Positions 7,697-42,617 of a DNA stretch of 64,000 nt are shown one piece after another. The stretch spans positions 10,418,001 to 10,482,000 of the forward strand of contig CM119371.1 of the NCBI GenBank assembly GCA_051294905.1. Direction: 5' to 3'. The notes beneath the pieces were generated by a model. The model was not told the origin of the DNA. It saw only the letters and a program-made list of their open reading frames with translations, and did no database searches. Numbering within the stretch: position 1 is the stretch's first letter; each line of letters opens with the position of its first letter. The position numbers were made by a program, and so were the translations under genes. Source of the stretch: Botryllus schlosseri. Taxonomy: Eukaryota.

Positions 7697-8282
7697 CATA
7701 GATTACTAACTTGCGGATAGATACGCAACTCCTGGTGGTTACGCTTGGGCAAGCAGTGTCTCGTATTGCTGAGCAATCTGAAAGTAGCGTAATTGGTAGT
7801 GCTGTAGCTGGCGACCAGAGCGCTGAAATTCAATATAATTGGTCTTAAGCGAAAGCTAGTGTCGCACTGATTCCGAAAATATAGATTAAAATCTTGTCAG
7901 GGGAATGGAACCACCCCTAAACAGCTCGCAAAGTCTGAAAATCGGCATTGTTCCAACAATGGCAGCGTCGCGACACAATGAACATAACAATGGTCAATTT
8001 CGTCCAGCGATTGTTCGGAACAATGCCGAGTTTCAGACTTTGAGGGCTGTTTTGAGGTGGTTCCATTGCTCTGAAAATTTTTTAATTTGTATTGTCGGAA
8101 CCAGTGCGACGCTAGCTTTCGATTAAGACCAGTTTTATTCATTTTCATCGCTCTGGTCGCCAGTTAGAGCACTACCAATTATGCTGCTTTTAGATTGCTC
8201 AGCAATAAGTGTAACTGCTTGCGCGAGCGTAACGACGGGTTTTGCGAGAGTTGCGTATCTATCCGTAGGTTAGTAATCTATA
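7697..8282. mobile_element. Foldback MITE with CATAG terminus (P-element-like)
   Basis: ~260-bp imperfect inverted arms; ends CATAGATTAC / GTAATCTATA; 7-bp TSD gtcaatc. Confidence 0.7.
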
Positions 8283-15857: not shown

Positions 15858-17809
15858 GCTCTGTCCGTTCTTACATTTGTAGGCCTACATATGTCGTAAG
15901 GGGGAGTTGACAAGCTTAAGGCTGACTACCCAGATTTCGGATGAAGTCATTGAGGCATCATCTTTTGGAACGGCACAATGAGAATCTGATGTTGTTTGAC
16001 TTACCTGGAAAATTATTCCGACCCTCAAACATTGTACGTAGACATACATATTTATAACATTGCGGAAAAGTTGTGCTGTTATTGGCCGGGTCACTTCAGA
16101 GATTCGTGTTAAAACTTGACTTATATCGAACCTTCAACTACAGGTCGTGTTCACCAGAACTATATAGCCTTTCAGTGGTTCGCGCCATGCTCATTAGTCA
16201 GTGCTCCGTTCAGAATATCTCAAGGATATCTAGAACTGGGACATCTATCACCATATCGAGAAATCATTCACCGCTAATAGGATCAGTCATGTATCGCTAT
16301 TAAAAACATACTGGACTGCAATTTTACGATTTCGATTCATGTAAATGGCTCGTCTATGCACATCAGCTATAAACGGTGGTTACTAGCAGGTAATGTGCGT
16401 CTAGACTGGGGTGATTACTTTATGACTGTAATCGATTGCGATTACGGTTCCTTCTGAATGACGCGATTACGATTACGATTACAACAAAACCAGGAGGTAG
16501 TCGATTACGATTACATTAGAAAAGTAATCACGATTACTCACGATTACATTTATTTTGCTTCTTAGAACTAATTTTACAAGAAATATTGGAAGGCAATATA
16601 AATATTGCTATGAAAGGGCCTAATGAGATAACAACTTACCGTATAAATGATGCGTCGTTTGCTTGTTACGTCATAATGTACCCATTGCCCAACTTTAATG
16701 TAGGGGCGAATTATCGCACCCAATGATTTGCATTCTTTCCAGGTCCGTACCTGCCGCAGCCTAAACTCCCCAATAGGGTGGGGAACAAACTCGGTGGAGA
16801 CTCAAAAGTATTTCGAAAACCAACATATATTATAGACTATTTGCGAGAGATTTACTTGCCTTGAAAATTTTCTTCGAGCTCTGCGATTTAAATGTCGCTA
16901 GATAGTTTGATTTTGAAATGCATAGGCCTCCCCCTCAAGAAAAAAAGTATCCATGATTTATAGGAATAGGGATTTAGGTGCCGGTCATTACCGTGCCACG
17001 ACACACCAAAAGACATATGCAGTTTCGGTCAACATGCGACTCCACGAAGTGGACTACTAAAGAAAGACCTTGGCCGAAACTTTGGGTATGTGTCCATTGT
17101 CAATAGCAGCGTTGGGTAGGCGTGACTAATAGTCCTGTCCTTCCGATCGAAGCGCACAATACAAATGCCACCCGAGGCACCAACAGAGCAATAAAGACAT
17201 GAAAATTTGAGTGTGCGTCTTATAAAAGTTTCTCTTTTAGTCTGCTACGTTTGGGCGACTACAACTACAATATATTATGATTATATAACAGACCGATGGT
17301 CACGAGTTAACAACATACCATACAGTATAACAACATACTGTAAAGTAATTATAACAACATAACCAGGTGTTATAACTATGAATTAGGCCTACTTGCCCCC
17401 AGCTCTACTTGTAAATGGGACCATTGGGGGCGGGGAGAGGATTAAAATGAATAGCAATATAATGCATTATCAGTATTATTACCGAAATTCAGTCTTCAAG
17501 TTGGAAATTGACCGCCCTGGGGGCCCAAGATCAACTTTTGGAATGGGAGACGTATTGCTGTTTTGGTGCTGATTCTAGCTACAACCCTCGATTAGCGAGG
17601 CTCGCTAACGTGGTTTATAAGCGGATGGCTATGGCAGAAGGTCCAAATGTTGAGTAGAGAATTGCGAAACATACAATTGGCGCCCGTTTCAAGTGGAGTC
17701 TTATCAGAATAAGATAAAGTTAACATAAAATTCTGCCTTCCACTTAATACAGATACTGCACGCTGCTGTTACGAGAAGAGTCAAAGAAAGGTTCGGTTAT
17801 GATATAGAT

Positions 17810-19664: not shown

Positions 19665-20911
19665 CAGAGGCGGGCAACTTCTCCAGCCGGCGGGCCAGAT
19701 ACAGAAAAATTAGGTAGGACTACTTGGCGGGCCGGATTGCTGAATCGATTTCTTCACCCATTTATCCACATATACACGGAATAAATCGTATTAATGAATG
19801 CATTTTAACGACAGCAATGTCATTTCAAAGCCATTTCTCGCCGATAATGATGAGGACAATGTGGATTTGAAAACATCAGTATTGTCATACAGGCGCCGCC
19901 ATGTCTGCTTCTCTCTGATCAATTAACACAAGGTGCAATCATAGTGTCCTATAGTGACCGGCTTGGCGAGCGCGAAATTTAATAAAACTGGTATCAATCG
20001 ACAGCTACCTTGGCACTGATTGCAAAAATATAAATTTTATTCTGCTCGTGGCCCTGGAACCCCCCAAAACAGCCTGGAATATGCATTGTAACCGAGTTTG
20101 GTATTGTGACGCAACCATGACTTCTGGGAGCAAGTGAGAATCAGCGCAAACCAAAAACGTTTTGCCATTGTTGCGCAACCGATTGAGCATTCACACTGTC
20201 ACTCTCGTGCGCACTTGCTTCTGATCTGCTCAGACGGTATGGTTGCGTCACAATACCAAATTCCGTTACAATGCAACATTCCAGGTCGATTTTGTTTCGG
20301 GGGGGGGGGGGGGTTCCAGGGCCACGAGCAGAATAAAATTTTGACTTTCGCAATCAGTACCGCGGTAGCTTTCAATTGATACCAGTTTCATCAAATTTAA
20401 TGCTCGGCAATCCGGTCAAAAATTACCGTCAAACTGCCTTTAGCTAAAGGAAGGTGTGACGTAACCCTCTTTCACTGAGCCGCGAGAGTTGCTTGTGTCC
20501 ACACCATATAGGACACTATGATGCAATCCTTAATTAGGATTTCACGGCGTTCGATAAGGCCAGTCCACAAATTTACCAAGATATCTATTTATTAGGGTTG
20601 GGTACATGGTAAATGCCGATGATGCAAGTCTTCTCGCTTCGACAGACTTACTCGTAAGCTCTACTCTCGCACGCTGCGTACACACACACGTATATAATGA
20701 CATACAATCAGGGATATCTAAAACTTTTTTATAGATTTTTAGATATCCCTGCATACAATCACTAAAATTTAACGTTTAAGCAAGTAGTGGGGAATCTCAG
20801 CAGACTGCGGCCGCAGGTCAAATTACCATGTAACGAGAAACTGTCCGCGGGTCGGACAAAATCCCGTCGTGGGCCGGATCCGGCCCGCGGGCCGTATGTT
20901 GCCCGCCCCTG
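19665..20911. mobile_element. Non-autonomous hAT element
   Basis: TIR CAGAGGCGGGCAAC / GTTGCCCGCCCCTG; perfect TSD ctctaagc. Confidence 0.8.
19940..20520. mobile_element. Foldback MITE with CATAG termini (P-element-like), nested
   Basis: TIR CATAGTGTCCTATA / TATAGGACACTATG; long internal inverted arms; 7-bp TSD gtgcaat/atgcaat; partial homolog at ~38030-38270. Confidence 0.7.
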
Positions 20912-22154: not shown

Positions 22155-23917
22155 CTAAATACTCTTCTGCAATCCTATCTGAAATAGGCCTACAACGTAT
22201 TTTCCGCGAGTGATATCCCAAAGTAAGCAGCTGTCCTGCTCGTCTGTCAGTTCCTTCCTGCGAAAATAGAGCGGTCGATATTCTGGAGATAAGCCGCTAG
22301 CGGGCCAATCATTAATCGCATAGTAATTTACACGACATGACAGCGGGTCTCGGCGCGTCTCAAAACCAATCCTTTTCGATGTTATTGGCATATTGTTTAC
22401 TTGTATTGCATTTCTCTTGTTGGCTTCATGCGTTGATGGATCCACATCGGCTGATGCATTCGAGGGACTTCCGGAAAGCCAATCCGCAGTAACATTCCGC
22501 TTACCCGGTTTGTAACGTATTTCGTAATTATAACCCGCGAGTTTGATTGCCAAACATTGCAACCTGGATGCGGCTAGCACGGGTATACCAATCTTTGGAC
22601 CTGGAATCAATGCCAAGGGTTGGTGGTCCGTACATAGGGTAAACCTCCTCACGCACAAGTAATGATGAAATCTCTGTAACCCGAATATTATGGCCAGAGC
22701 TTTTTTCTCGATGTGGGAATAGTTTTTCTCGGCTGCTGACAATGTATGAGACGCGTACGAGAATGGGCGCTCAGTCGCTCACGTTCTCCATCGCGTTGCA
22801 TGATTACTGCTCCTAAACCAGAGGCGCGTCTACTGACATCGTAATCGGTTTATCAGGGCCATAGTGAGCCAATACCAAATCGGAGGTAAGGCAATGTTTC
22901 GAGACTCCGAAGGCCTTTTCACAAGCATCATTCCACTTCCACTTCACATTCTTTCTTATCAAGTTCGTTAACGGTTGCAACAGACTGGATGGGATCGGTA
23001 TAAATTTTTTATGGACATTTACCAGCCCGAGAAAAGACCGCAGCACACTTACGTTGTTTGCGCGGCAAGCGGAAGTCACTGATCGCAAATTTGAGTTGCT
23101 CGGTCGTATGCCATTCCGGGGACTCTTCCAGGAAACAACACTTGGACTTTTCAGCTTTCAAACCATATTTATCCAAACGATTACACACAGTTATTAACAG
23201 CTCAAGATTTCCCTTCTCCGAAGACCCTGTGATTAAGATGTCGTCCAGTAAACACGTGAATTCAGTCCTCGCAGCACCTGATCCATCAATTGCTGAAAAA
23301 TCGTCGGCGCTGATGCCACTCCAAACGGAAGTCAGGTGTTTGTTTGTTTTGAGGTACTCGTGACATTTGTCGACTACTATGGTCGTTTACACCAGGCCCA
23401 TATTCTTCACAGCCTATGTAAACCTCTAACACTTAGGTATAGGACTCGAACCCGAAAACCCATTGGTGTTGCAGCCGCGGATTATGCCACTGCGCTATCT
23501 CGCCGGGTCGGAAGTCGGGTGTATCTGAACAATCCGAGATGGGTGTTGATCACCACGTAATTATGCGCGTCGTCATCAAGCTCCGCTTGCGTGTACGCTT
23601 GTGATGAATCGATCTTGCTGAAATACGAACTTTTCCTTCCGTTGCGAAGCACCAGTAAGTCGTCTGGGGTCGGTAATGATATTCGGGTGTATCCAATTGC
23701 GGATTGATCGTAAACTTAAAGTCGCCGCAAATACGAACTTCATCGGACGCCGGTATAGAACAGGCACAATTGGACTTGCCCAGTCGGAGTGCTCAACCAA
23801 TTCCAACACACCAGTATCCACTAACATACGCTCAAACAGTTAATCTTGTATCCGGTCCTACCCTTGCGCCTTGTACATTTTCCGGGGCACATCTTCCTTA
23901 TGTGTCTAACCTGTCTG
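22155..23917 (-). pseudogene. Decayed Gypsy (Ty3/Gypsy, Mag-like) pol: RT and RNase H
   Basis: Motifs HSDWASPIVPV, LRSFLGLVN, WKWNDACEKAF, LAHY, AEKNYSHIEKKALAIIFG and FTLCTDHQPL, with multiple frameshifts. Confidence 0.85.
23340..23509 (-). mobile_element. tRNA-derived SINE inserted in Gypsy RT
   Basis: Head GGCGAGATAGCGCAGTGG...GGTTCGAGTCC (A and B boxes); (AAAC)n tail; TSD ggaagtc(a/g)ggtgt. Confidence 0.75.
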
Positions 23918-23944
23918 CACGCAAGTAGTTAGTATGATCGGTCG

Positions 23945-24460
23945 TGGTGTGCCATTGTCTCTTATGGGCGGGGTGGTGAGGTGCCTGAAAACCGGGGGTG
24001 GTGAGGTGACCCTTATCTCTTATGGCGGGGGTGGTGAGGTGCCATTGTGTCTTATGGCGGGGGTGGTGAGGTGACCCTTATCTCTTATGGCGGGGGTGGT
24101 GAGGTGCCTGAAAACCGGGGGTGGTGAGGTGACCCTTATCTCTTATGGCGGGGGTGGTGAGGTGCCATGTGTTTTTATGGATGCGGTGATGATGGTACCC
24201 GTTCAGACCCCCTATCGCTCGTGATGTGCCAATGGTTCTTATGGGATCTCTGGTGATGTGTCATTGTTTCTTACGCGGTCTCTGGTGATGTGCGATTGGT
24301 TCTTATGGGATCTCTGGTGATGTGCCATTGTTTCTTATGGTATCTCTGGTGACGGCACCCTTTCGGGTATAGGCTACGTCGGTGATGTGTCTGTCATGTA
24401 TTCTTACGGGATCTGTGGTGATTCACCATGTGTTCTTATGGGTGCGGTCGTGATTCGCAC
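23945..24460 (+). repeat. Subterminal G-rich tandem array (mirrored at ~37093-37608)
   Basis: 7 copies of GGGGTGGTGAGGTG in ~25/33-bp units, then ~32-bp TCTTATGGGATCTCTGGTGATGTG-type units. Confidence 0.9.
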
Positions 24461-27400
24461 TTTCAACCATCTCTCGCGCGGTGTTGAATAGTCACCAACA
24501 ATAACCGCACAAACGGAAACGTGGCTTGTTGTGAGGATTAAGCAGTGCGACCTATATTCCGAATGACCTGCGCGGGGAAACTCGTGTTGGCATGCGGCTC
24601 TTATGTCTTATGGGTGCGTTGGCATGCGGCTAGCGTTATTCTTATGGACGCGGCGGTGATTCGTACTTTCGGGTATAGACTGCGGGTGGCATGTCGTACT
24701 TTTAGCAAAAAACGGTGTGGAATAGTTTACAAAATCTTAGAATCACTCGCAGAATTATATTTTGGTAATTATTTTGTCACAGAGCCGGCGTAGACGGCGA
24801 TTCCAATACCAACAATAACCGTGCACACAAACTAACACTTCAAAAAGGGTGTGAAATATTTGTAAAATGCTACGATCACTCACAAGATAATGTCCCAGAC
24901 ATAACCATCATTCGTGACTTGATGTTACATACATACCAATCGCTCACAAGGTAATATTTTGATAGTTTGGTACGGAACTTGATTTCACTCGTAAGATTTA
25001 TTAAGTAACGAATAACAGACCACCAGTGTCGGTAACTTGAATAGCGACAAATTGTCACTTATTTCCGCTCTAACCCTAATCCTTTGTGAAGTGAACGCTT
25101 ATTCAAAAGGGTGTGATATAATTTTAAAATCCAACGACTACTCACCGGATAATGCTTCAGACATATAGCAATCCCTCATACCCGCTCACAAGGTAATATT
25201 TCGGTAATAAGTTTGTCACAGAACCGTCGCAGGCGGTGATTCGAAAACCAACAATTTGTCACTCGCCCGCGATCGCTATATGTTTCACGCCTCCAGAATA
25301 GTGGCTGACTTTAGTTGCGTGATAAGATCCATGAAAATATTCAATCAATGTGTTAGTTTATCAACTTGAAATGAAACTCACTACACAAATCAAGTCGATT
25401 CGTATCTGAATGTTTTAAATCGGTACAACTCTAATCCTTTGACAAATCCCTTAACGCGTTTTTGTTGAATCGAACGTAACCCGAATATATTATTCGCACA
25501 TTCCGCGCCACTGTTTTCACACTTATAGAATCAATACCAACTATAACTCTACAAGAATCAAGAATCACAAGTATGTGCATTACACAGTTATTGTCTTTAT
25601 TAACTTGAAATCAAACACTTAACAAAAACACGCAACTAATCATTTGGCAACTCTAGCATTACCAAAAAATTCCAGTATTGTTGATTGAAAATCCTTGAGT
25701 CATTATCATCAAAAATGTTATAGTACCGCATCGGAATCCATTCGCGGGATGTACTAAAAGTAAATCCAGATAATCCAAAATGAAATATTTGGACTTTGAC
25801 AAACATGACTACTAACTTTGATCCAGTCACATTTCAAGATTATACTTTGAAACAATCCTTGAAACTTACAACTCTATTCACGACTGAGTTTTCCGTTTAT
25901 CAAATAGAGTTTCAGTAAATACTATCGCGATATTTTAATGTGTTACTACACACAATAGAATCATTCAATGAAATAGCACCTGTTGTAAATATTTCTAACT
26001 TGACAACCACTTGTGCATACCGCGATCGACTTGTGACGCGATGAGTTAAATCGGAATATTTCAATCTATTTGTCGAAACCTTGAACAAGCTATCGGGTTA
26101 TTTTTTGTTGCAATCGAGTGAACGGAAATAGTATTACGTCTCAACATTTTAACATCTTCCCATACACAAAAGAGTAAAATACAAAAAAAACCTTGTCAAG
26201 TCAATCGGTTTGTAACTTACCCAACCAAAGCAAAAAGTATCCTTATGAAAAGTAGACAAGACTACGCGAGTAATCACCACAATCCAAAATCCATAGCAAG
26301 TTCGGTTGTATTCATAGTCCACCAACTCGTATTTTTATTCAACTGTAAAAGTCGTTACTATTCCGCAAGACAAAGAAATTACTATGTGGTATATTTTGTA
26401 AGACAAAAGTAATTACTTCTCGGTGTCGGCGACTTGAGATTAACATATGTTTTGAGTATATGATATTTGAATGTCTGACCAACGTAGTTAAGAATTCATT
26501 TTATACTATCGAACACCGGTATTACATTGAAAGTTATCATGATGTAAACATAAGGATTGACACATGGATTTGACATATGTAATAGTTGATCATGACTTGA
26601 TTATTAAATTATTCGCGTTAATTAGACCCGGTGTTGCGGTAAGGGTTATTATGACAGCAACAAACTTTTCACCACCGTGGTTATTAACATATTGATTTGT
26701 AAAACTATACTTGTCTGAAATGTTCTTGGTTTGAAAGATATTCCGTGTTGGTACAAATCACTCTGTGTATTACGGATATCAGAAAATATTTTTACAAATG
26801 TAGTTGTTTCCAGTAACCAAGACTAAAGATGACACAACAATTTCGTTTGGAATATCTTTACTGGACGCATCCTATTCTACTAGACTTGAGTAATACACAA
26901 AACTCATAGCATTAACAAAATCACAATAGGCGCTACACTGAAATCTACAAAATGTGTTTGTATTGTTAATCAAAGTAGTGATCATAAATTATCATTTAAA
27001 TAAGTAATTGTAATCATAAAACCAAACTTGTGAAAGTCATTACCATAACAAAAGAATATTGTAGGTTGCTTGCTAAATGTATGCCGGAAATATTTGTAGA
27101 ACGCTCACGACCAAAGAAATCGGAAATTTCTCCCCATTGTCATTCGTCAAAGTATATGTTGTCACAATACTCAACCCGTAAAAGATCTTACTTGTATGTG
27201 ATTGAATCGCCGGTAATTAACTCACTAAATCAAACCATAAGGAAATTTCACTCAGTCATCGGATTATGATATTAAACAGCGTCGCTTAATCGGTGTAGAG
27301 CGTTTTTCTAAATGCAAATCATACCTGACCGACAGAAAACAATTTTCACTCACCTTGTAATGAAACCAAGTGGTGGGCCTTCGTTCAATATTTTGTTTGT

Positions 27401-28904
27401 GTCAAATACTTTGCAATAAACACACACACTGGAGTGGTTGAGCTTTACATCATCAAGCTGTCATCTGTAAATCGAGATCACATCCGACTTGTAACTGCAT
27501 CGTTTACCTAACCGAGTTGTATGCACATTGCACAGTTTCATATTTTTATCATTTAGTGATTGCTGAACATACCAAACGATACACATTCACTTCCGAAATA
27601 CTGCGTTGATCTCAATTCCCTTTATCGTGATAACCGAAGTACATTTGTTTCGAATTCGTAACAGCCGACTTTTCTATGACACGATAAATTTTGACAAGTT
27701 ATGCTTAGAAGATTGGTTGCATATCACGAAAAATAACATACTGCTCATATTGATACTGTTAATCGGTATTTTCACGCGAGTCGATTTTCAAATGAGTAAA
27801 ATTTATTACATGAGTTTCTCCGCTTAATGTAAATGAAAACTCAGTCGTCTTTTAACATCACAAAGACATTGATAAAAAGTAAGCAATCAAACACAACACT
27901 TTGTACGACACTAATTATTGTTCCACACATCTCATTTCATACTAAGTGTATACGAAAGATATTCATGTTACACGAAAGTATCCGCTCATGCTACAAACCT
28001 GTACAATGATTGGTGGTGTAAGTCCAGCACAATTGTGGTATCCATACGAGTTTAGTTAACACAATTTACGACACCGAGGTCGCCTCATCCTTCGTAAGAC
28101 AACAAACCAAGGCTTCAGGATATGTCCATGGCATAACAATAAATCAGCTACTCCAACAACAGAGTACATATGTTTTCTAGCACGGTGCTTACATCTTACA
28201 CACAAATCAACCTACTTTGCTAACGAAAAGTGCTGAGTCATCACATGGTTGTCCTCACAACAATACAACACATGGTTGTCCTCACAACAATACAACTAAA
28301 ACATACTATCATACAAAATGGCCGTTATAGTTTGCACACCAACGATACATCGTACAAGTAGCAAGTCTCGAGAATCCAGTTATTCAAAAAAACGTGAAAG
28401 TGTTTCTACGCCAAGTCGGTATGTTGACGAAAGCATATATTGTAATATCATGATCGATTTACATTCGTTGGTCACAAAATGTCACTACTCTAAAAAATTA
28501 TTTTTCACTCAAAGTCTACTTGTCACCATTCGTTTCATCAAGCACGAGTTCAAGAAACCTGCTACGGCATGAATTGTTATTTTTATGTTGTGTAAATAGG
28601 TAATAATTAATTTTAGTAACACTATATCAACATCATCGAGTTGCGCGAATAGATTTACATGTGGTCTTGTGGTTTTAATCGAAGTATACAGCACGGTCTA
28701 ATGTAGAGTCATCTCTACTGTACAGCAACTCGGTAATCGAAATGTATTAAAATTTAAACAACGATCTTGTTTCGTCGCACCAAAAATATGTTTACTATCG
28801 CGATACTCTGCACAGGCCGTGTAAATCCTTTTCACACTCGTAATAGTATGCCAACAGCTACCGGCGACAACGTTTAACAATACCAACGACACTAAACATA
28901 CGAT

Positions 28905-29480
28905 ACCTACCCAAGTAAAATTACCATTTTCACCAGGAGGTCGGTCGTTACCCGAGTAGAAATACCATCGTCCTTTGAAGATTTATCGTTTACCCAGTGT
29001 AACAAACCCCTTTTCCTTTGGAAATCTATTTTTTCTCTGGGTAACAAACCTTTTTCACTTGGAAATATATTTTTTCTCTGGTTAACAAACCTTTTTCACT
29101 TGGAAATATATTTTTTCTCTGGGTAACAAACCTTTTTCACTTGGAAATATATTTTTTCTCTGGGTAACAAACCTTTTTCACTTGGAAAGATATTTTTTCC
29201 CCGGGTAACAAACCTTTTTCCCTGAGCAACAAACCATTTTCACTTGGTGGTCCGTCGTTTACCCGAGTAAAAATATCCTTTTCTTTTGGAGATCCGGCGT
29301 TTACCCAGTGTAACAATACATTTTCACTTGGAAAAATACTTTTACCTAGAGTAACTAATCATTTTCTCCTGGGTAACAAACCCTTTTCGTCTGGAAACTA
29401 TCATTTACCTGAGTACCAATACAGTTTTCACTTGGAAATCTACCTTCTCCCTGGGTAACAATATCATTTTCGTTTTGAAA
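28905..29480 (+). repeat. 41/42-bp minisatellite (mirrored at ~31890-32420)
   Basis: Unit CTCTGGGTAACAAACCTTTTTCACTTGGAAATATATTTTTT; left arm has one more unit than the right. Confidence 0.9.
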
Positions 29481-31173
29481 ACTGACAACCACACCGGCCA
29501 ATTTGATAGTTTTGTATATTGTTACAACGGGCAGTGACAAAATATACACCAACAACGACTCCGATACATTTGTCTAATCAAATATTCACTTGCTCTGATG
29601 CATCCCATCAAAATCATTGGTTACTCACATACAATAACAATGAGCTGTTGTACATCGACATGTATGTTTTCGAATTGGCGAATAAAGGGGTTTCCGATAT
29701 GTTCGTGATGTCCGGTTTCGTGCTTTGGATTTTCCAGAGTCAAAATGTCTGAATAAAACACCTCCTCGACTTTGGTAGCTGGTTGATACACGGATAATGA
29801 ATTTATGTTCCCAATCGCGCTAACAACTCCGGATTACTTGTGAGTTTCCTCAGGTCTGTTTACTATTTTGTGTCTTTACTGATCAATACATGTCGCTCCA
29901 GTCAGCTGAAACCGGATCACTAATATGAGAAAGTGTGTGGGGGCCTGATCCGGATATTCACTCATGAACCAACGACCAATATTCAAGTAAACATGCTACA
30001 GACCGTGTTTTGTCTCCATGAAAAATACCAATGCATACACCATCACATACAAGTAACGTCACGATTGTTCACAAGTATTCGCGTAAACGAGGTATACATA
30101 CAATGTGTCGGTGTACAAACATCATGGTAAACAAATTCAAGTTCTCAAGTCTCATCATGCGACGACTCTGTACATTCAATGTGGGCATAGATGACTTGGA
30201 GACAGGCAAGCAGCCATATTTGGACGTAACACGGTCTTAGTTTGAACCGACCTCCACCCAACTTGTGAAAAATCAATCTCACACGAGTACAACGCTTTCA
30301 CGGATTCACACCTTGATTTTGTAAGATTGTTCGGATTCTCAGGTAGACTTGTATCGTGATACAGACTTCGACATAATCGGGTTGCGTAACTCGCTCAATC
30401 CCACCACGTATTGTTCGTCCTAACCTGCGAACTTTTTTGCTGAGACCACAGTGTTTCACCCGGCGTAATGTATTTGGCGATCACCATCGTTATCAATCTT
30501 TCACGCGATGAATATGTCAGATGTCGCTACTCCCACATAACGACTACAGATAAAAATCGTGAGCAGTGACTCCGGATTGAAATCGTAAACAGGGACTCTG
30601 TGCGTGTGTGTGAATCTCGAGTTCGATTACGATTAGATAATGTAATCCAAGGTGTGTCTCTGCGAGTTGAAGGCTTATTTCATGTTAATCACACCGCAAG
30701 AGGGTGCTATCTCGTAATTCTACAGGTCGTTATAAAACACGATTGGAAACTTTTGGTCTAGTCGATCCAGCTACGTATTGAAACGGTGCACCCACACAGA
30801 CCATTGAGAAAACATCGTCGTAACCTAACCATATCCACGAGTAAATATGGGACTACGCGTAACTGTCCATAGATTCCTCTGGCCCCACGCCGTGGTTTTA
30901 CGTCACAGACAAAATGCGGCAGTGGAAATATTAAAAATGAAAAACGATACCTTGGTGACATTTGATTTGGATTTTACACCTGATGAACCATACACTCGAT
31001 TGGTACATTGGGAGGAAAACTCTATCGTCAAGGTTGAGGGAAAAGAAATGTACAGATTTGTTGTTGTTGTGGATATTCAGCGAAAATCAGGGTATATGAT
31101 TGTGTATGGTTCGCATATTTGACTGAGAATATATCAACATGCATGTTGCGCTGTCAATTGTATCATGCCGTGT

Positions 31174-34100
31174 GTCATCTATGCCCACATTGAATGTACA
31201 GAGTCGTCGCATGATGAGACTTGAGAACTTGAATTTGTTTACCATGATGTTTGTACACCGACACATTGTATGTATACCTCGTTTACGCGAATACTTGTGA
31301 ACAATCGTGACGTTACTTGTATGTGATGGTGTATGCATTGGTATTTTTCATGGAGACAAAACACGGTCTGTAGCATGTTTACTTGAATATTGGTCGTTGG
31401 TTCATGAGTGAATATCCGGATCAGGCCCCCACACACTTTCTCATATTAGTGATCCGGTTTCAGCTGACTGGAGCGACATGTATTGATCAGTAAAGACACA
31501 AAATAGTAAACAGACCTGAGGAAACTCACAAGTAACCCGGAGTTGTTAGCGCGATTGGGAACATAAATTCATTATCCGTGTATCAACCAGCTACCAAAGT
31601 CGAGGAGGTGTTTTATTCAGACATTTTGACTCTGGAAAATCCAAAGCACGAAACCGGACATCACGAACATATCGGAAACCCCTTTATTCGCCAATTCGAA
31701 AACATACATGTCGATGTACAACAGCTCATTGTTATTGTATGTGAGTAACCAATGATTTTGATGGGATGCATCAGAGCAAGTGAATATTTGATTAGACAAA
31801 TGTATCGGAGTCGTTGTTGGTGTATATTTTGTCACTGCCCGTTGTAACAATATACAAAACTATCAAATTGGCCGGTGTGGTTGTCAGTTTTCAAAACGAA
31901 AATGATATTGTTACCCAGGGAGAAGGTAGATTTCCAAGTGAAAACTGTATTGGTACTCAGGTAAATGATAGTTTCCAGACGAAAAGGGTTTGTTACCCAG
32001 GAGAAAATGATTAGTTACTCTAGGTAAAAGTATTTTTCCAAGTGAAAATGTATTGTTACACTGGGTAAACGCCGGATCTCCAAAAGAAAAGGATATTTTT
32101 ACTCGGGTAAACGACGGACCACCAAGTGAAAATGGTTTGTTGCTCAGGGAAAAAGGTTTGTTACCCGGGGAAAAAATATCTTTCCAAGTGAAAAAGGTTT
32201 GTTACCCAGAGAAAAAATATATTTCCAAGTGAAAAAGGTTTGTTACCCAGAGAAAAAATATATTTCCAAGTGAAAAAGGTTTGTTACCCAGAGAAAAAAT
32301 AGATTTCCAAAGGAAAAGGGGTTTGTTACACTGGGTAAACGATAAATCTTCAAAGGACGATGGTATTTCTACTCGGGTAACGACCGACCTCCAGGTGAAA
32401 ATGGTAATTTTACTTGGGTAGGTATCGTATGTTTAGTGTCGTTGGTATTGTTAAACGTTGTCGCCGGTAGCTGTTGGCATACTATTACGAGTGTGAAAAG
32501 GATTTACACGGCCTGTGCAGAGTATCGCGATAGTAAACATATTTTTGGTGCGACGAAACAAGATCGTTGTTTAAATTTTAATACATTTCGATTACCGAGT
32601 TGCTGTACAGTAGAGATGACTCTACATTAGACCGTGCTGTATACTTCGATTAAAACCACAAGACCACATGTAAATCTATTCGCGCAACTCGATGATGTTG
32701 ATATAGTGTTACTAAAATTAATTATTACCTATTTACACAACATAAAAATAACAATTCATGCCGTAGCAGGTTTCTTGAACTCGTGCTTGATGAAACGAAT
32801 GGTGACAAGTAGACTTTGAGTGAAAAATAATTTTTTAGAGTAGTGACATTTTGTGACCAACGAATGTAAATCGATCATGATATTACAATATATGCTTTCG
32901 TCAACATACCGACTTGGCGTAGAAACACTTTCACGTTTTTTTGAATAACTGGATTCTCGAGACTTGCTACTTGTACGATGTATCGTTGGTGTGCAAACTA
33001 TAACGGCCATTTTGTATGATAGTATGTTTTAGTTGTATTGTTGTGAGGACAACCATGTGTTGTATTGTTGTGAGGACAACCATGTGATGACTCAGCACTT
33101 TTCGTTAGCAAAGTAGGTTGATTTGTGTGTAAGATGTAAGCACCGTGCTAGAAAACATATGTACTCTGTTGTTGGAGTAGCTGATTTATTGTTATGCCAT
33201 GGACATATCCTGAAGCCTTGGTTTGTTGTCTTACGAAGGATGAGGCGACCTCGGTGTCGTAAATTGTGTTAACTAAACTCGTATGGATACCACAATTGTG
33301 CTGGACTTACACCACCAATCATTGTACAGGTTTGTAGCATGAGCGGATACTTTCGTGTAACATGAATATCTTTCGTATACACTTAGTATGAAATGAGATG
33401 TGTGGAACAATAATTAGTGTCGTACAAAGTGTTGTGTTTGATTGCTTACTTTTTATCAATGTCTTTGTGATGTTAAAAGACGACTGAGTTTTCATTTACA
33501 TTAAGCGGAGAAACTCATGTAATAAATTTTACTCATTTGAAAATCGACTCGCGTGAAAATACCGATTAACAGTATCAATATGAGCAGTATGTTATTTTTC
33601 GTGATATGCAACCAATCTTCTAAGCATAACTTGTCAAAATTTATCGTGTCATAGAAAAGTCGGCTGTTACGAATTCGAAACAAATGTACTTCGGTTATCA
33701 CGATAAAGGGAATTGAGATCAACGCAGTATTTCGGAAGTGAATGTGTATCGTTTGGTATGTTCAGCAATCACTAAATGATAAAAATATGAAACTGTGCAA
33801 TGTGCATACAACTCGGTTAGGTAAACGATGCAGTTACAAGTCGGATGTGATCTCGATTTACAGATGACAGCTTGATGATGTAAAGCTCAACCACTCCAGT
33901 GTGTGTGTTTATTGCAAAGTATTTGACACAAACAAAATATTGAACGAAGGCCCACCACTTGGTTTCATTACAAGGTGAGTGAAAATTGTTTTCTGTCGGT
34001 CAGGTATGATTTGCATTTAGAAAAACGCTCTACACCGATTAAGCGACGCTGTTTAATATCATAATCCGATGACTGAGTGAAATTTCCTTATGGTTTGATT

Positions 34101-37100
34101 TAGTGAGTTAATTACCGGCGATTCAATCACATACAAGTAAGATCTTTTACGGGTTGAGTATTGTGACAACATATACTTTGACGAATGACAATGGGGAGAA
34201 ATTTCCGATTTCTTTGGTCGTGAGCGTTCTACAAATATTTCCGGCATACATTTAGCAAGCAACCTACAATATTATTTTGTTATGGTAATGACTTTCACAA
34301 GTTTGGTTTTATGATTACAATTACTTATTTAAATGATAATTTATGATCACTACTTTGATTAACAATACAAACACATTTTGTAGATTTCAGTGTAGCGCCT
34401 ATTGTGATTTTGTTAATGCTATGAGTTTTGTGTATTACTCAAGTCTAGTAGAATAGGATGCGTCCAGTAAAGATATTCCAAACGAAATTGTTGTGTCATC
34501 TTTAGTCTTGGTTACTGGAAACAACTACATTTGTAAAAATATTTTCTGATATCCGTAATACACAGAGTGATTTGTACCAACACGGAATATCTTTCAAACC
34601 AAGAACATTTCAGACAAGTATAGTTTTACAAATCAATATGTTAATAACCACGGTGGTGAAAAGTTTGTTGCTGTCATAATAACCCTTACCGCAACACCGG
34701 GTCTAATTAACGCGAATAATTTAATAATCAAGTCATGATCAACTATTACATATGTCAAATCCATGTGTCAATCCTTATGTTTACAGCATGATAACTTTCA
34801 ATGTAATACCGGTGTTCGATAGTATAAAATGAATTCTTAACTACGTTGGTCAGACATTCAAATATCATATACTCAATACATATGTTAATCTCAAGTCGCC
34901 GACACCGAGAAGTAATTACTTTTGTCTTACAAAATATCCCACATAGTAATTTCTTTGTCTTGCGGAATAGTAACGACTTTTACAGTTGAATAAAAATACG
35001 AGTTGGTGGACTATGAATACAACCGAACTTGCTATGGATTTTGGATTGTGGTGATTACTCGCGTAGTCTTGTCTACTTTTCATAAGGATACTTTTTGCTT
35101 TGGTTGGGTAAGTTACAAACCGATTGACTTGACAAGGTTTTTTTTGTATTTTACTCTTTTGTGTATGGGAAGATGTTAAAATGTTGAGACGTAATACTAT
35201 TTCCGTTCACTCGATTGCAACAAAAAATAACCCGATAGCTTGTTCAAGGTTTCGACAAATAGATTGAAATATTCCGATTTAACTCATCGCGTCACAAGTC
35301 GATCGCGGTATGCACAAGTGGTTGTCAAGTTAGAAATATTTGCAACAGTTGCTATTTCATTGAATGATTCTATTGTGTGTAGTAACACATTAAAATATCG
35401 CGATAGTATTTACTGAAACTCTATTTGATAAACGGAAAACTCAGTCGTGAATAGAGTTGTAAGTTTCAAGGATTGTTTCAAAGTATAATCTTGAAATGTG
35501 ACTGGATCAAAGTTAGTAGTCATGTTTGTCAAAGTCCAAATATTTCATTTTGGATTATCTGGATTTACTTTTAGTACATCCCGCGAATGGATTCCGATGC
35601 GGTACTATAACATTTTTGATGATAATGACTCAAGGATTTTCAATCAACAATACTGGAATTTTTTGGTAATGCTAGAGTTGCCAAATGATTAGTTGCGTGT
35701 TTTTGTTAAGTGTTTGATTTCAAGTTAATAAAGACAATAACTGTGTAATGCACATACTTGTGATTCTTGATTCTTGTAGAGTTATAGTTGGTATTGATTC
35801 TATAAGTGTGAAAACAGTGGCGCGGAATGTGCGAATAATATATTCGGGTTACGTTCGATTCAACAAAAACGCGTTAAGGGATTTGTCAAAGGATTAGAGT
35901 TGTACCGATTTAAAACATTCAGATACGAATCGACTTGATTTGTGTAGTGAGTTTCATTTCAAGTTGATAAACTAACACATTGATTGAATATTTTCATGGA
36001 TCTTATCACGCAACTAAAGTCAGCCACTATTCTGGAGGCGTGAAACATATAGCGATCGCGGGCGAGTGACAAATTGTTGGTTTTCGAATCACCGCCTGCG
36101 ACGGTTCTGTGACAAACTTATTACCGAAATATTACCTTGTGAGCGGGTATGAGGGATTGCTATATGTCTGAAGCATTATCCGGTGAGTGGTCGTTGGATT
36201 TTAAAATTATATCACACCCTTTTGAATAAGCGTTCACTTCACAAAGGATTAGGGTTAGAGCGGAAATAAGTGACAATTTGTCGCTATTCAAGTTACCGAC
36301 ACTGGTGGTCTGTTATTCGTTACTTAATAAATCTTACGAGTGAAATCAAGTTCCGTACCAAACTATCAAAATATTACCTTGTGAGCGATTGGTATGTATG
36401 TAACATCAAGTCACGAATGATGGTTATGTCTGGGACATTATCTTGTGAGTGATCGTAGCATTTTACAAATATTTCACACCCTTTTTGAAGTGTTAGTTTG
36501 TGTGCACGGTTATTGTTGGTATTGGAATCGCCGTCTACGCCGGTTCTGTGACAAAATAATTACCAAAATATAATTATGCGAGTGATGCTTACGAATATTT
36601 CACCGCGTGAGCGATTGATATGTCTGTAACACCAAGTCGCGAAAGATGGTTATGTCCGAGACATTATCTTGTTAGCGATCGTGGGATTTTACAATTATTT
36701 CACACCTATTTGAAGTGTTAGTTTGTGTACACGGTTATTGTTGGTATTGGAATCGCCGTCTACGCCGGCTCTGTGACAAAATAATTACCAAAATATAATT
36801 CTGCGAGTGATTCTAAGATTTTGTAAACTATTCCACACCGTTTTTTGCTAAAAGTACGACATGCCACCCGCAGTCTATACCCGAAAGTACGAATCACCGC
36901 CGCGTCCATAAGAATAACGCTAGCCGCATGCCAACGCACCCATAAGACATAAGAGCCGCATGCCAACACGAGTTTCCCCGCGCAGGTCATTCGGAATATA
37001 GGTCGCACTGCTTAATCCTCACAACAAGCCACGTTTCCGTTTGTGCGGTTATTGTTGGTGACTATTCAACACCGCGCGAGAGATGGTTGAAAGTGCGAAT

Positions 37101-37629
37101 CACGACCGCACCCATAAGAACACATGGTGAATCACCACAGATCCCGTAAGAATACATGACAGACACATCACCGACGTAGCCTATACCCGAAAGGGTGCCG
37201 TCACCAGAGATACCATAAGAAACAATGGCACATCACCAGAGATCCCATAAGAACCAATCGCACATCACCAGAGACCGCGTAAGACACAATGACACATCAC
37301 CAGAGATCCCATAAGAACCATTGGCACATCACGAGCGATAGGGGGTCTGAACGGGTACCATCATCACCGCATCCATAAAAACACATGGCACCTCACCACC
37401 CCCGCCATAAGAGATAAGGGTCACCTCACCACCCCCGGTTTTCAGGCACCTCACCACCCCCGCCATAAGAGATAAGGGTCACCTCACCACCCCCGCCATA
37501 AGACACAATGGCACCTCACCACCCCCGCCATAAGAGATAAGGGTCACCTCACCACCCCCGGTTTTCAGGCACCTCACCACCCCGCCCATAAGAGACAATG
37601 GCACACCACGACCGATCATACTAACTACT
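31174..37629 (-). repeat. Right inverted arm (6456 bp)
   Basis: Mirror-coordinate sums 61369, 61328 and 61553 shift by exactly 41 and 225 bp; 6272-41+225=6456. Confidence 0.97.
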
Positions 37630-38557
37630 CACGCATGACACAGCGCTATTTGAAAAATACAATTGTGTTCTCCGTGGTTAGATATACCGCAGCGCAGTCA
37701 CCCGCTGTTCCCTTCGTACCATCACGGTGCTGTAACTACCACTATCGAAAAGTTGTCTTCCCGCTGCTTCTATTGCGACAGCCTTTTAAACGGCGTCTTA
37801 TAAGCTCAAATCTTTCTCCAACAGTAAGTACTCTTGGATAGGTCTCGAGCGCAAACCTCAGATGAGTGGATCCCGAATTACTTGAGTTAAGAATTGCCCC
37901 GCTCGCGATGTTCCGACAATTTCTTTAGAAGGCAATAATTCGATTTAACAATCCTGTCTAGCAAAACGAGGGTGTAGCCAAGAAGAAAGAATCAGACAGA
38001 AGTGTCTCGATCTCAATGCAAAATTCGGGGCTGATTTTTTTTGGGGGAGGGGGAGGGGGTTTCCAGGACCATGAGCAGAAGAAAATTTATATTTTCGTAA
38101 TCAGTACAGCAGCAGCTTTCTATTGATACCCGTTTTAGCGAATTTAGCGTTCGGCAAGCCAGTCAAACATTGGCCGTACAGCTGCCATTGGCCAAATGGA
38201 AAGTATGACGTAACCCAAATGCAGAGAGCCGTTCAATCTCGCTGTGTCCACATCATATAGTACACTATGTTTCAACATCTCCGCAGCCATGGGAACAGTT
38301 CTAGCATCCTCTGGATGCGAGCACACCTGGTTAAGAAACACTGGCCCAGAGAATCACCATATACATTAAAAAATAAGAGCAATAAAATCACAACATATTT
38401 TTATCCTGACTCGTGCCTGACCTGCTGAGATAATATCGACTACTCGCCGAAGTATAGGCACAGGCATCAATTTCCACTCATGCACCGCCTATATAGTAAT
38501 ATAGTCAAGTTGGATAAAACAATAATTGCCAAATCGAGGCCCATATACTGTAAAATA

Positions 38558-39979
38558 TTACACTTGTTTAGGATCTTGTAAATATGACCAAAGAAACAGA
38601 ATAGCCATAAGGAAGCAGAGCAAAAAGGGCATCGGAAACAAGACACCGAATGCGGAGCTAAAATTGTCCATCAATGCACGTACGCAAGCTGTGCTAAATG
38701 TCAAGAACACAACTCCACCTCCCGTCAAAATGCTATACGATTTCAATCGAATGGAACTAGGCATGTTGGCAGTAATTCCCGATCCGCGGTGTTTCAGACA
38801 GATCATCAACGCAGAACGAGTGGATGTTAACGTCAGATACGACACATAAACACCAGCGATGTTGTTATAATGGAAGCTAGCTACTGAAGCAGTGAAGGCG
38901 ATGATCAACAGTGAAGAAACGCAAATTATTATCAGTCTCGGTTTGGAAAATTTATCAAGAATTTGACCTACTATAGGTCCCACAGCAGTCGCCGTTACGA
39001 TACCAATGATAATCAGCAACCCAACAAATTGATCATTTAAATAGGGAAATTGTTTCAAAATCAAAGAAGATATAAGGGTGGCGCCGTACGCTCTGTCGGT
39101 CATCGCGAAAGAGTACAGGATAAAAAATATCGCGTATGGGCGATAAGTGAATAAACATGCGACGTCTTTCAGCTCCCTTATCAGGCTGTAGGTCTTTGTC
39201 TGCAGTAAAGGCGGTTTTTCGTTTGGTTCTGGATCATTAAGTAGTTCGCCATTTTCACAAACAGGCGGCTTGTCAGACACAAAGCATATTACTAAAACAC
39301 AACAAAATAAGGACATTACCGACAATGAGCCGAATGTCGCAGCGAAAACAATCCTAAATCTGCTATCAATATTATCGGAAGTCGTTGAGAATGTCGATAT
39401 TTGCTGAAGCTCTTGATGGCTATACGAAATCCCCATTGCTCTTGTAGCAACCAAATTAGACATCAAAGATGCTAGCCGCCTTGTAACAGATGACATTGCT
39501 GACGCCTTTCCTCTTTCATGCAAAGGAAACCAATTCACTGACACTAGCTGTGCTATCGGTATTATAATTCCGGCAGCGGAACCGGATAGAAACATCCCAG
39601 CACATACCAGTGGGAATATTCTTAACAAAACTCCCATTGTAACCAGTACTGTGGCGAATCCGTTCAAGACGCAGGCTAGCAGAGTGATTTGCCGAAGGGT
39701 GATCCAACCACCGATCACGCAAATCACTACAACGCTAGCCAGTCTACCGACGAGATTGGCGATTGCCTGTAAGTCCGTTATGGCTGGATTGATTCCGAAA
39801 TATCCCGATGTAATATCGTTGACATATGAGAATGATCCGAAGCCGAAGACATCCAATACGGTGATGAAACACACTATGACTGAAATGCCCCATCTTTTCC
39901 ACACGACGCGGTGCCTTCTCCCCTCCAACGGGAACGTTTTGTTGGTTTCTGAATCACAACCACTGTCATCTGACTTCAT
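38558..39979 (-). CDS. Intronless MFS transporter, SLC49/FLVCR/DIRC2-like (paralog 2), ~473 aa
   Basis: Collinear with and highly similar to the 1049-2473 protein; first ATG (MKSDDSG) at 39979; flanks are also homologous. Confidence 0.85.
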   Translation of the reverse strand: MKSDDSGCDSETNKTFPLEGRRHRVVWKRWGISVIVCFITVLDVFGFGSFSYVNDITSGYFGINPAITDLQAIANLVGRLASVVVICVIGGWITLRQITLLACVLNGFATVLVTMGVLLRIFPLVCAGMFLSGSAAGIIIPIAQLVSVNWFPLHERGKASAMSSVTRRLASLMSNLVATRAMGISYSHQELQQISTFSTTSDNIDSRFRIVFAATFGSLSVMSLFCCVLVICFVSDKPPVCENGELLNDPEPNEKPPLLQTKTYSLIRELKDVACLFTYRPYAIFFILYSFAMTDRAYGATLISSLILKQFPYLNDQFVGLLIIIGIVTATAVGPIVGQILDKFSKPRLIIICVSSLLIIAFTASVASFHYNNIAGVYVSYLTLTSTRSALMICLKHRGSGITANMPSSIRLKSYSILTGGGVVFLTFSTACVRALMDNFSSAFGVLFPMPFLLCFLMAILFLWSYLQDPKQV

Positions 39980-41330
39980 GGCACAGACAGTCGACGCGAT
40001 GTCAGTCACTCGATTCAGGTTCAGAGAATCTTCCGCAACGGCAAATCAATGCACGTACCTGTACCAAGCTACGCAACGATGACTTGAGCAATGAGCACGA
40101 GTACGATCATTCGTGCCGAAACGGAAGGAAATATAGAGAGCATACGCTATGAATGGGCTATTGATTGCTGTGAAATTGGCCTATGATAGCGTAGCGATGA
40201 GCGTCAGTGCCATCTGATGAAATTCAGAATCTACAGTTCTACACCGTTCTACCTGCGGCTTGAGATTTTTATTCCTTACACTGGACAAACACCAGTCCAA
40301 CACACACAGCAGAGTATATAACAGCGGACCTGTTCATAGCAGTGATGAGCATCGGAGCGGAGTCGGAGTGTATCCGGAGCGAAGTTTTGCCAATTTTGTG
40401 ATACTCGGAGTGGAGTCGGAGTTTACTACAGATATTTTTCCGGAGTTTTCCGGAGTGTTGTAGGTTTTGCCCCTGATATCTTTCGATAGCTCTGACCAGA
40501 AGACACTATTGATTACAGACCAAAACACAGACAGTTGACACCTTGTAAAATTGTAATATGACGGGTAACATGCAAAATTGATTGCCAAGTGCATAAAAAT
40601 CAGCCACCTGCACTGCAATTGGGGACTGGAGAGTAACCTAGTGATCTAGCAAGGCATTTTCGGCGAGCAGTGTCTGTAGTTCACAAAATTGAAGGCACCC
40701 AATATCATTCGCAGCAGACATGGGGTGATTACTTCATGAATGTAATCGATTGCGATTACGATTACTTCTGAATGACGCGATTACGATTACGATTACAGCA
40801 AAATCAGGAAGTAGTCGATCACGATTACGATTTCATTGGAAAAGTAATCACGATTACTCACGATTACATTTATTTTGCATCTTAGAAGTTCTATTGGAAG
40901 ACAATATATGGATTGCGCTGAAAAGGCCTAATGAGAACAACTTTCTTTAAAAAAGAAGCGACATTTGCTTGTTACGTCATAAAGTACCCATTGCTCATTT
41001 TATATTGGACGATTTATCGCACCCAACGATTTGCATTCTTGCCAGGTCCACAACTGCCGAACCCCAAATTTCCTAATAGGGTGGGATCGAGCTCGAAGTG
41101 GACTCGGTAGTATTTCGTAAACCAACACAAATTATAGACTATTTTCGAGAGATTTCATGAACTTGAAAATTGTCTACGAGCATCGCGATTTAAATGTCTC
41201 TAGATAGCTTGATTTTGAAATACATAGCCTACGTCTGTCGATCTCCTCCTCAAGAAAAAAAGCATGCATAATTTATAATAACAGGCATTTAGGCGCCAGT
41301 CACTACCGCGCCACGACACACCAAGAGACA

Positions 41331-41559
41331 GTCCGCGGCTGCAACACCAATGGGTGCGGGTTCGAGTCCGACCGAGGTCGACTTCACAATTCCGATATCT
41401 AGGCCCTCCTCACCACCTCATCCGCAAGCGGTGTCTGACAAAAAGCCTAGAGGTGGGCCGTGCTATAAGTCGGCAGTTACGGAAAATAATGAAGAATATC
41501 GGCCTGGTGTAAATGACCGTAGTAGTCGACGAACACCATAAATAGCACAAAACAAACAA
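41331..41559 (+). mobile_element. 5'-truncated tRNA-derived SINE nested in copy B
   Basis: B box GGTTCGAGTCC; AAAC tail; TSD acacaccaa(g/a)agaca; empty site in copy A near 17000. Confidence 0.75.
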
Positions 41560-42617
41560 ACACACCAAAAGACATATGCAGTATCAGCCAACATGCGAAT
41601 CCACGAAGCGTGATACTAATGAAAGACATTGGACGAAACTTGTGGTATGTGTGCATGGTCAATAGCCGCGCTGAGTGGGCGTAACTAATAACCGGTCCTT
41701 CCAATCTGAGCCCACAATGCAAATGCCACCCGGGCACCCAATGAGCATTAAAGACAAGGCAATTTGTGTGTGCGTCTCGCGCAAGTATTTCTTTTAGTCT
41801 GCTACGTTTTGCGCACAACAATATCTTTTGATTATATAACAGACCGGAGGTCACGAATTACCAACATACCTTAAAGTAATTATTACAAGATACCAGATGT
41901 TATAATTATGAATTACGTGCTCCCAGCACTTCAGGTAAATCTGACCATCGGGGGCTGAGAGAGGATTAAAAATGAATAGTAATATAATGCAAATACCAAT
42001 TTTGTTGACGAAATTAAATCTTCAACTTGAAAATTAACTACCCTATGGAGGCCCAAGACCAACGTTTGGAGTGGGGGACGATTTGCTGTTTTTGTCCTGA
42101 TTCTAGCTACAAGCCACGCTGACATTGTATATAAGCCGATGGCTATGGCGGCATGTCCAAATGTTGAGTAAAGAATTGTGAAATAAAGATTGGCGCCCGT
42201 TTCAATCAGAATCATATGAGAATAAGAGAAAGTGAACATAACATTCTGTCTTCAACTTAATACAAATAATGTAATGCAAGCGGCCATTACTAGAGACGGC
42301 TCGGTTATGATATATATCAGCAGCTGTTGATTTTTAATGCTTCGTCATGGAAACCGTAATGTTTTATTTGACGAGTAGGCTACAAAATTCCAAACCTTTG
42401 TCCGGCGTACGTTCGTACTACATACACATAGGTCTACTGCTCGCCAAGCAGCAACGGTCAAACTTCGTTTAACTAAGCAAAACCAAACATCAATACAAAA
42501 GTGACTATTTTAAACTAGGTAGAGTGGTGATTAATTATCCTGCTGCGAGGTAGTACACACTAATCTACATCGAATATCTATTCAGTATGTGTGAATAGCT
42601 GGCTGGATACTTCTTAC

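Follow-up and report, generated by a model that had tools for sequence, protein, structure and literature searches.

A 13,706-bp element in the Botryllus schlosseri window (23924..37629) is probably a recently inserted, helper-dependent, non-autonomous satellite of a Maverick/Polinton, whose arms were reset during copying. The window is the whole 64-kb stretch of DNA that was analyzed. When it is compared with itself, one inverted repeat dominates, and this self-comparison together with an alignment of the arms delimits the element, 93% of which is inverted repeat. The element is real and young, and concerted arms are shown for this copy. Two further ideas, that the arms are dead coding sequence and that they form a clean clock, are not established.

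The element consists of three parts. The left arm (23924..30195, plus strand) is 6272 bp long and has no detectable gene. A unique loop, or spacer, of 978 bp follows (30196..31173); like the element as a whole, it is assigned no strand. The right arm (31174..37629, minus strand) is 6456 bp long and differs from the left by ten substitutions, an extra 225 bp and a missing 41 bp. The left end carries the motif (AGT)2 (23924..23929, plus strand), as defined in the description of Maverick ends in PMC8097293, and the right end carries (ACT)2 (37624..37629, plus strand). Directly outside lies a perfect 6-bp target-site duplication, CACGCA, with its left copy at 23918..23923 and its right copy at 37630..37635 (both plus strand), for which the chance expectation is about 1.7e-4. 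An earlier note on this DNA had recognized the palindrome correctly but placed it at 24268..37290; the true ends, 23924 and 37629, lie outside that interval.

Tandem repeats make up about one quarter of each arm. Subterminal GC-rich arrays with periods of 32–33, 58 and 123 bp occupy 23958..24456 (plus strand) and are mirrored at 37097–37595; they are possible candidates for an origin or for protein-binding sites. Deeper in the left arm, a 41-bp tandem array (28999..29220, plus strand) has 5.4 copies, and its right-arm counterpart (32149–32329) has 4.4.

The target of the insertion was itself a mobile element. On the left lies the pol of a decayed Gypsy-type LTR retrotransposon (22155..23917, minus strand), identified by Pfam through its RNase H and containing what we take to be the start of the reverse transcriptase (RT). 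On the right lies a decayed stretch of the same relic (37636..37950, minus strand), presumably gag-like. We read the flank translations as two halves of one CCHC-type zinc knuckle, split by the insertion; Pfam returned no match for the four flank frames tested around it. If our labels for the knuckle and the RT are right, the Gypsy-type target (22155–23917 and 37636–37950) seemingly has no protease region, with the RT starting within about 100 bp of the knuckle.

Repeats found within the window cover 28–29% of each flank. The best element-versus-flank BLASTN match has an E value of 0.007 in a window-level test, which agrees with the earlier observation that no SINE or MITE of the flanks occurs inside the element. 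The flanks include MITE-like palindromes of 460–580 bp (7698–8281 and 19955–20418). They also hold two intronless MFS_1 transporter open reading frames (ORFs) of about 495 aa on the minus strand (1049–2539 and 38558–40045). These are 84% alike in DNA, 37 kb apart and in the same orientation, and the element sits between the duplicates. A further repeat pair (16403–17758 and 40716–42271), 77–80% alike, may be part of the tandem duplication to which the transporter genes belong.

The two arms are nearly identical. Global alignment of the left arm with the reverse-complemented right arm gave ten substitutions, exactly those that had been listed by eye in the earlier note. Their positions (left/right) are 24268/37285, 25139/36189, 25979/35349, 25986/35342, 26390/34938, 26451/34877, 26542/34786, 27054/34274, 28935/32393 and 29833/31536. 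Arm divergence is therefore 10 in 6231 aligned bases, or 0.16% (Poisson 95% range 0.08–0.30%). Five of the ten fall inside 563 bp (p = 0.04), a result on which we do not rely, as only this one of five window sizes tried fell below 0.05; such a cluster could be a tract copied from another family member.

The alignment also exposed two indels that had been missed by eye: the right arm is longer by one 225-bp unit, the left by one 41-bp tandem unit. The right arm has two tandem 225-bp units that are 91% alike (36365..36814, minus strand). The left arm has a single unit (24739..24963, plus strand), the start of which corresponds to the outer right-arm unit and the rest to the inner one. On the simplest reading, this single unit most likely arose by deletion between two units. 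An older repeat, 80–85% alike, lies within 24739–25255, about 260–440 bp further in than the young 225-bp duplication. The presence of both implies that the subterminal block was duplicated more than once.

Could the palindrome be an assembly artefact? A fold-back read or a falsely duplicated haplotype would make the ten differences errors or alleles. No read or contig in the data spans the whole structure, and nine of the arm differences are absent from the variant rows listed from public data. Against this, no single-base indel, the usual long-read error, separates the arms across 6.2 kb, compared with ten substitutions. The tenth difference, 25139, is the sole arm difference among the 40 of 392 variant rows listed; here the right arm carries the letter of the family and the left a private one. 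An artefact is also hard to square with exact ends, a perfect duplication and different flanks that come from one interrupted relic. Because of the clean ends, the duplication, the one split relic and the lack of single-base arm indels, we regard an artefact as very unlikely, to the point of being nearly negligible. The earlier note had named sequencing errors or allelic haplotypes as what would undo its reading; clean ends and a clean target duplication speak against both artefact and allelic mis-assembly.

The element belongs to a family. Twenty of 24 listed public runs (9 studies) contain part of the stretch, with no RNA run listed as containing it, and four runs were aligned to 23500–31190. 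In run X1, 152,334 contig records fall on one arm plus the loop, with identities from below 90% to above 99%. This makes the family a large and varied one; copy number was not read from summed contig depth. By the crude measure of summed contig depth (24271–30181 versus 30182–30952), arm depth is about 4–10 times loop depth in three DNA runs, where twofold is expected. This excess may reflect subfamilies with common arms and different loops. Runs X8–X10 and X12, filed under a second organism label, also contain the family, and X8 has the same majority letters.

Variation within the family bears on how the arms are kept alike. Of the 40 listed variant rows (392 in total), 26 lie in the arm, and three of these were set aside, the majority in X1 and X5 agreeing with the window. 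In the remaining 23 rows the X1 and X5 majority differs from the window, and at 22 of 23 the minority letter is common to both arms. At ten of these 22 sites, about 98% or more of the depth carries the other letter. Judged from these letters, the lineage of the element has diverged widely from the family without its arms drifting apart. The claim of the earlier note that the arms are homogenized is thereby supported, and concerted evolution of the arms is shown for this copy.

The shared minority letters leave the timing of homogenization undated, since reset at copying and conversion in place fit them equally. In the latter case the host would have converted one arm by the other after insertion, as in sex-chromosome palindromes, and the divergence would date the last conversion. 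Such arm-to-arm gene conversion keeps Y palindromes more than 99.9% identical, according to PMC3723533, and a 1-kb spacer would ease pairing. The element resembles sex-chromosome palindromes in its arms (>99.8% identical), its short spacer and its concerted evolution. Those palindromes, however, are fixed host structures, whereas the element is mobile and multi-copy and has transposon ends. The 225-bp and 41-bp indels were left uncorrected, and a probable empty site in run X5, together with 0.16% arm divergence against a flank difference of about 2%, leaves little time for private mutations to be converted. Between the arms, three transitions stand against seven transversions, compared with 179 against 87 in family variation (Fisher p = 0.035, post hoc, ten sites), a contrast that is a hint for reset at copying. 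On balance we consider conversion in place unlikely, and we favor arms reset during copying.

The probable empty site comes from one contig. Record 10 of run X5 (345 letters, depth 46.9) fits 23769–23923, departs precisely where the target duplication stops and leaves 190 letters unmatched. We infer that X5, which is another sample, probably has an empty site, with the remaining 190 letters unseen and the flank being a multi-copy relic. Position 23829 is covered in X5 by a single contig only, and the contig therefore looks locus-specific. In the two flank contigs of X5, 7 of 354 letters (2%) are unlike the window, a difference some twelve times larger than that between the arms. The probable empty site and the low arm divergence relative to the flank support a young insertion, as had been proposed from the sequence of the window.

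If the arms were identical at insertion, their divergence gives an age of 0.0016 / (2 x mutation rate), or about 80,000 generations (38,000–150,000 over the Poisson range), with an assumed rate of 1e-8 per site per generation. Ongoing conversion in place would make this estimate too low, and arms that already differed at insertion would make it too high. The earlier note had suggested dating the insertion in the way LTR pairs are dated. LTR identity is reset by the logic of reverse transcription. For the present arms a reset at each insertion may not be obligatory and later conversion could occur, which makes a strict clock unsafe; with in-place gene conversion by the host as the competing explanation, the dating survives as an approximation only.

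The earlier note had further described the arms as stop-riddled former coding sequence, a description that our analysis does not bear out. Stop density is as predicted by base composition, period-3 signal is at background, and the longest stop-free frame in the element has 96 codons against a simulated mean of 102. Stops are indeed common to both arms, but this is trivial at 99.84% identity. Pfam and PHROGs returned no family for the six frames of 23924–31173, a phmmer search of 1.84 billion proteins with one frame of 25724–27523 found no match, and Rfam gave none either. No ORF of at least 150 aa lies inside the element, and Pfam, PHROGs and tblastn were blank for integrase, ATPase, protease and capsid genes. 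The profile search covered the polymerase only; the other Maverick genes were sought by tblastn with ORFs of at least 120 aa from nine viral loci, the best hit of which (E = 0.06) lies outside the element. Among the family indels in the arm, 11 of the 12 listed (of 40) are not multiples of three. The arms now behave as non-coding DNA.

RNA gave a similar picture. Run X24 is a single library made from another individual; of 12.9 million of its reads (about 6% of the run), 203 fall on the stretch, on both strands and 198 of them only partly. Among the 15 of 203 joints listed, one has RNA support, and it has GT..TT ends and is present in DNA too. The possibility raised in the earlier note, that the dead frames are intact spliced genes, thus finds no spliced gene behind it in this RNA library.

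A version closer to the earlier note is that the arms derive from a Maverick's coding end, such as the polymerase side, which decayed and was copied back on itself after its genes had died. A profile built from 104 Maverick-type polymerases gives a weak hint in its favor, its best domain (1.7 bits) lying in frame +0 near 25690–26080 and matching the N-terminal part of the polymerase; however, 3 of 20 simulated controls score higher. A resemblance of 25780–26300 to a polymerase N-terminus, noticed by eye, likewise scores no better than controls. A frameshift-tolerant profile scored 17.9, within the 16.8–24.5 of 30 controls, in a test that detects a polymerase at 20% decay and mostly at 30%. A second weak hint is the excess of TTA, CTA and TCA (leucine/serine) triplets in frame +0 among the three plus frames of 25300–28920 (100, against 68 and 72; post hoc). 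Codon usage is unremarkable (p = 0.66) in a test of such low power that the decayed Gypsy relic escaped it too (p = 0.125). Old coding decay of the arms is compatible with these tests, the power of which is limited beyond about 30% decay. With the family searches and phmmer blank as well, we think a decayed coding end rather unlikely. The claim that homogenization post-dates gene decay falls with its premise, as there is no dated decay to which it could refer. The contrast between dead genes and identical arms also shrinks, as none of the results shows that the arms were genes.

The loop may be different. A candidate small gene of 91 aa (30847..31122, plus strand) lies in it and matches no family in Pfam, nor did the Atlas yield a usable match. 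Two cluster representatives, with five members in total, are 90% and 73% identical to it in gap-free alignments that span the full length. A caveat on these relatives is the preference of protein databases for intact frames, and 19% of simulated loops produce an ORF as long as this one. Substitutions are mildly conservative (p = 0.03–0.12 in four comparisons). No longer relative was found among 381 candidates, and the 266 candidate stretches taken from viral contigs include no relative. RNA depth on the ORF is below 1 in the one RNA library, and the predicted fold has a mean pLDDT of 37. The full-length relatives and the pattern of substitutions suggest a candidate gene under selection. The earlier note had called the element a pure cis-parasite; this holds in that no replication or integration genes were found, and is doubtful given the loop ORF with its full-length relatives. 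Two other short ATG frames, one per arm, enter the loop from both sides (30031–30240, plus strand, 69 aa; 31087–31338, minus strand, 83 aa) and are probably chance.

How does the element compare with known systems? In the parts of a vertebrate survey that describe them (PMC8097293), Mavericks have (AGT)2//(ACT)2 or (AG)3//(CT)3 ends and a 6-bp duplication, and intact copies are 12.7–24.6 kb long with terminal inverted repeats (TIRs) of 46–1,447 bp, 402 bp on average. The element shares the (AGT)2//(ACT)2 ends and the perfect 6-bp duplication with autonomous Mavericks, and its length is within their range. It differs from them in its TIRs, which at 6.3–6.5 kb (6272/6456 bp, against tens to about 1,500 bp) make up 93% of the element, and in that no core gene was detected (protein-primed family B polymerase, integrase, ATPase, protease or capsid). 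Maverick ends and duplication without core genes, a multi-copy family and recent movement, the last from the inferred empty site, are what a non-autonomous Maverick would present. Butterfly polintons with TIRs of about 2 kb and intact core genes, as described in part of bioRxiv 10.1101/2025.02.07.637071, show that TIRs can grow inward to kilobases. Their TIRs are gene-bearing and one-third as long, whereas the arms of our element are gene-less and nearly the whole of it. Non-autonomous Polintons have been named, for example zebrafish Polinton-1N1_DR in PMC9341505. The element, compared with it by name only, is alike in its Polinton ends and in its presumed dependence on a helper. TIRs of several kilobases may also occur in a non-autonomous Polinton of zebrafish; if this is right, the novelty of the present element is lower.

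Foldback transposons also combine a short loop with long arms in which tandem arrays lie. Their target-site duplications are 9–11 bp for FB and for Mutator-like elements and 7 bp for Galileo. The element might then be a cut-and-paste transposon of the FB, Galileo or Tetris kind with ends that merely look Maverick-like. Its long modular arms with tandem arrays and its short loop fit this, as does the finding of no helper in viral or metagenome contigs: a scan for the end motif gave none in viral contigs and two in metagenomes, neither of them similar to the window. The duplication, however, is 6 bp rather than 7 bp or 9–11 bp, and 6 bp combined with (AGT)2//(ACT)2 is the Maverick signature as set out in the survey (PMC8097293). 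A foldback origin is thus distinctly improbable, and assignment to the Mavericks is preferred.

We found no title on a mostly palindromic Maverick derivative in a literature search whose coverage largely excludes subscription papers and the founding Polinton paper. The available portions of PMC3014272, PMC5499653, PMC6431247 and bioRxiv 10.1101/2024.01.15.575659 describe none either.

A Maverick satellite with reset arms would work as follows. A helper integrase would make the 6-bp duplication, and a helper protein-primed polymerase would copy the element from its AGT-repeat ends. The single strand would then fold, forming a stem of 6.3 kb and a loop of 1 kb, in which one small gene may lie. 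One arm would be rewritten from the other by snap-back or template-switch synthesis or by repair in the stem, often enough for new mutations to reach both. The ten substitutions and two repeat-unit indels would be mostly changes since the last reset, probably since insertion. In the Polinton-based model, in its outline in PMC4046053, an excised single strand likewise passes through a panhandle intermediate. Plain end-to-end copying of a panhandle would not equalize the arms, and the rewriting is an extra step that we assume. Adenovirus ITR ends are repaired via a panhandle, and by analogy the panhandle repair proposed in the earlier note is a plausible way of keeping the arms identical.

A stronger form of this proposal is a heritable snap-back Maverick satellite, which would replicate as a 6-kb hairpin, make both arms from one template in each round and carry its own small loop gene; we advance it tentatively and would not yet bet on it. 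Snap-back defective viral genomes are products of template switching and need a helper. The element is like these copy-back genomes and like the foldback transposons FB and Galileo in its long inverted arms with arrays and its short loop. It differs from them in its Maverick-type end motif and duplication length, and in being integrated and inherited. If the stronger form is true, the hairpin satellite would represent, among DNA viruses and in integrated form, what copy-back defective genomes are elsewhere.

Palindromes that are long and near-perfect tend to be unstable (PMC1803023, PMC3855049), and a genome that carries many of them is therefore of interest. Ideas about Maverick excision and replication, and about how the ends stay identical, depend on a model, at least in the account given in PMC4046053. 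A large family with 6-kb arms offers thousands of informative sites per copy, which makes this model testable from genomes alone. For orthologous copies, reset at copying and chromosomal conversion predict different patterns. If the hairpin satellite is real, its arm pairs would provide both an LTR-like clock and a genomic record of Maverick copying, a process never seen directly.
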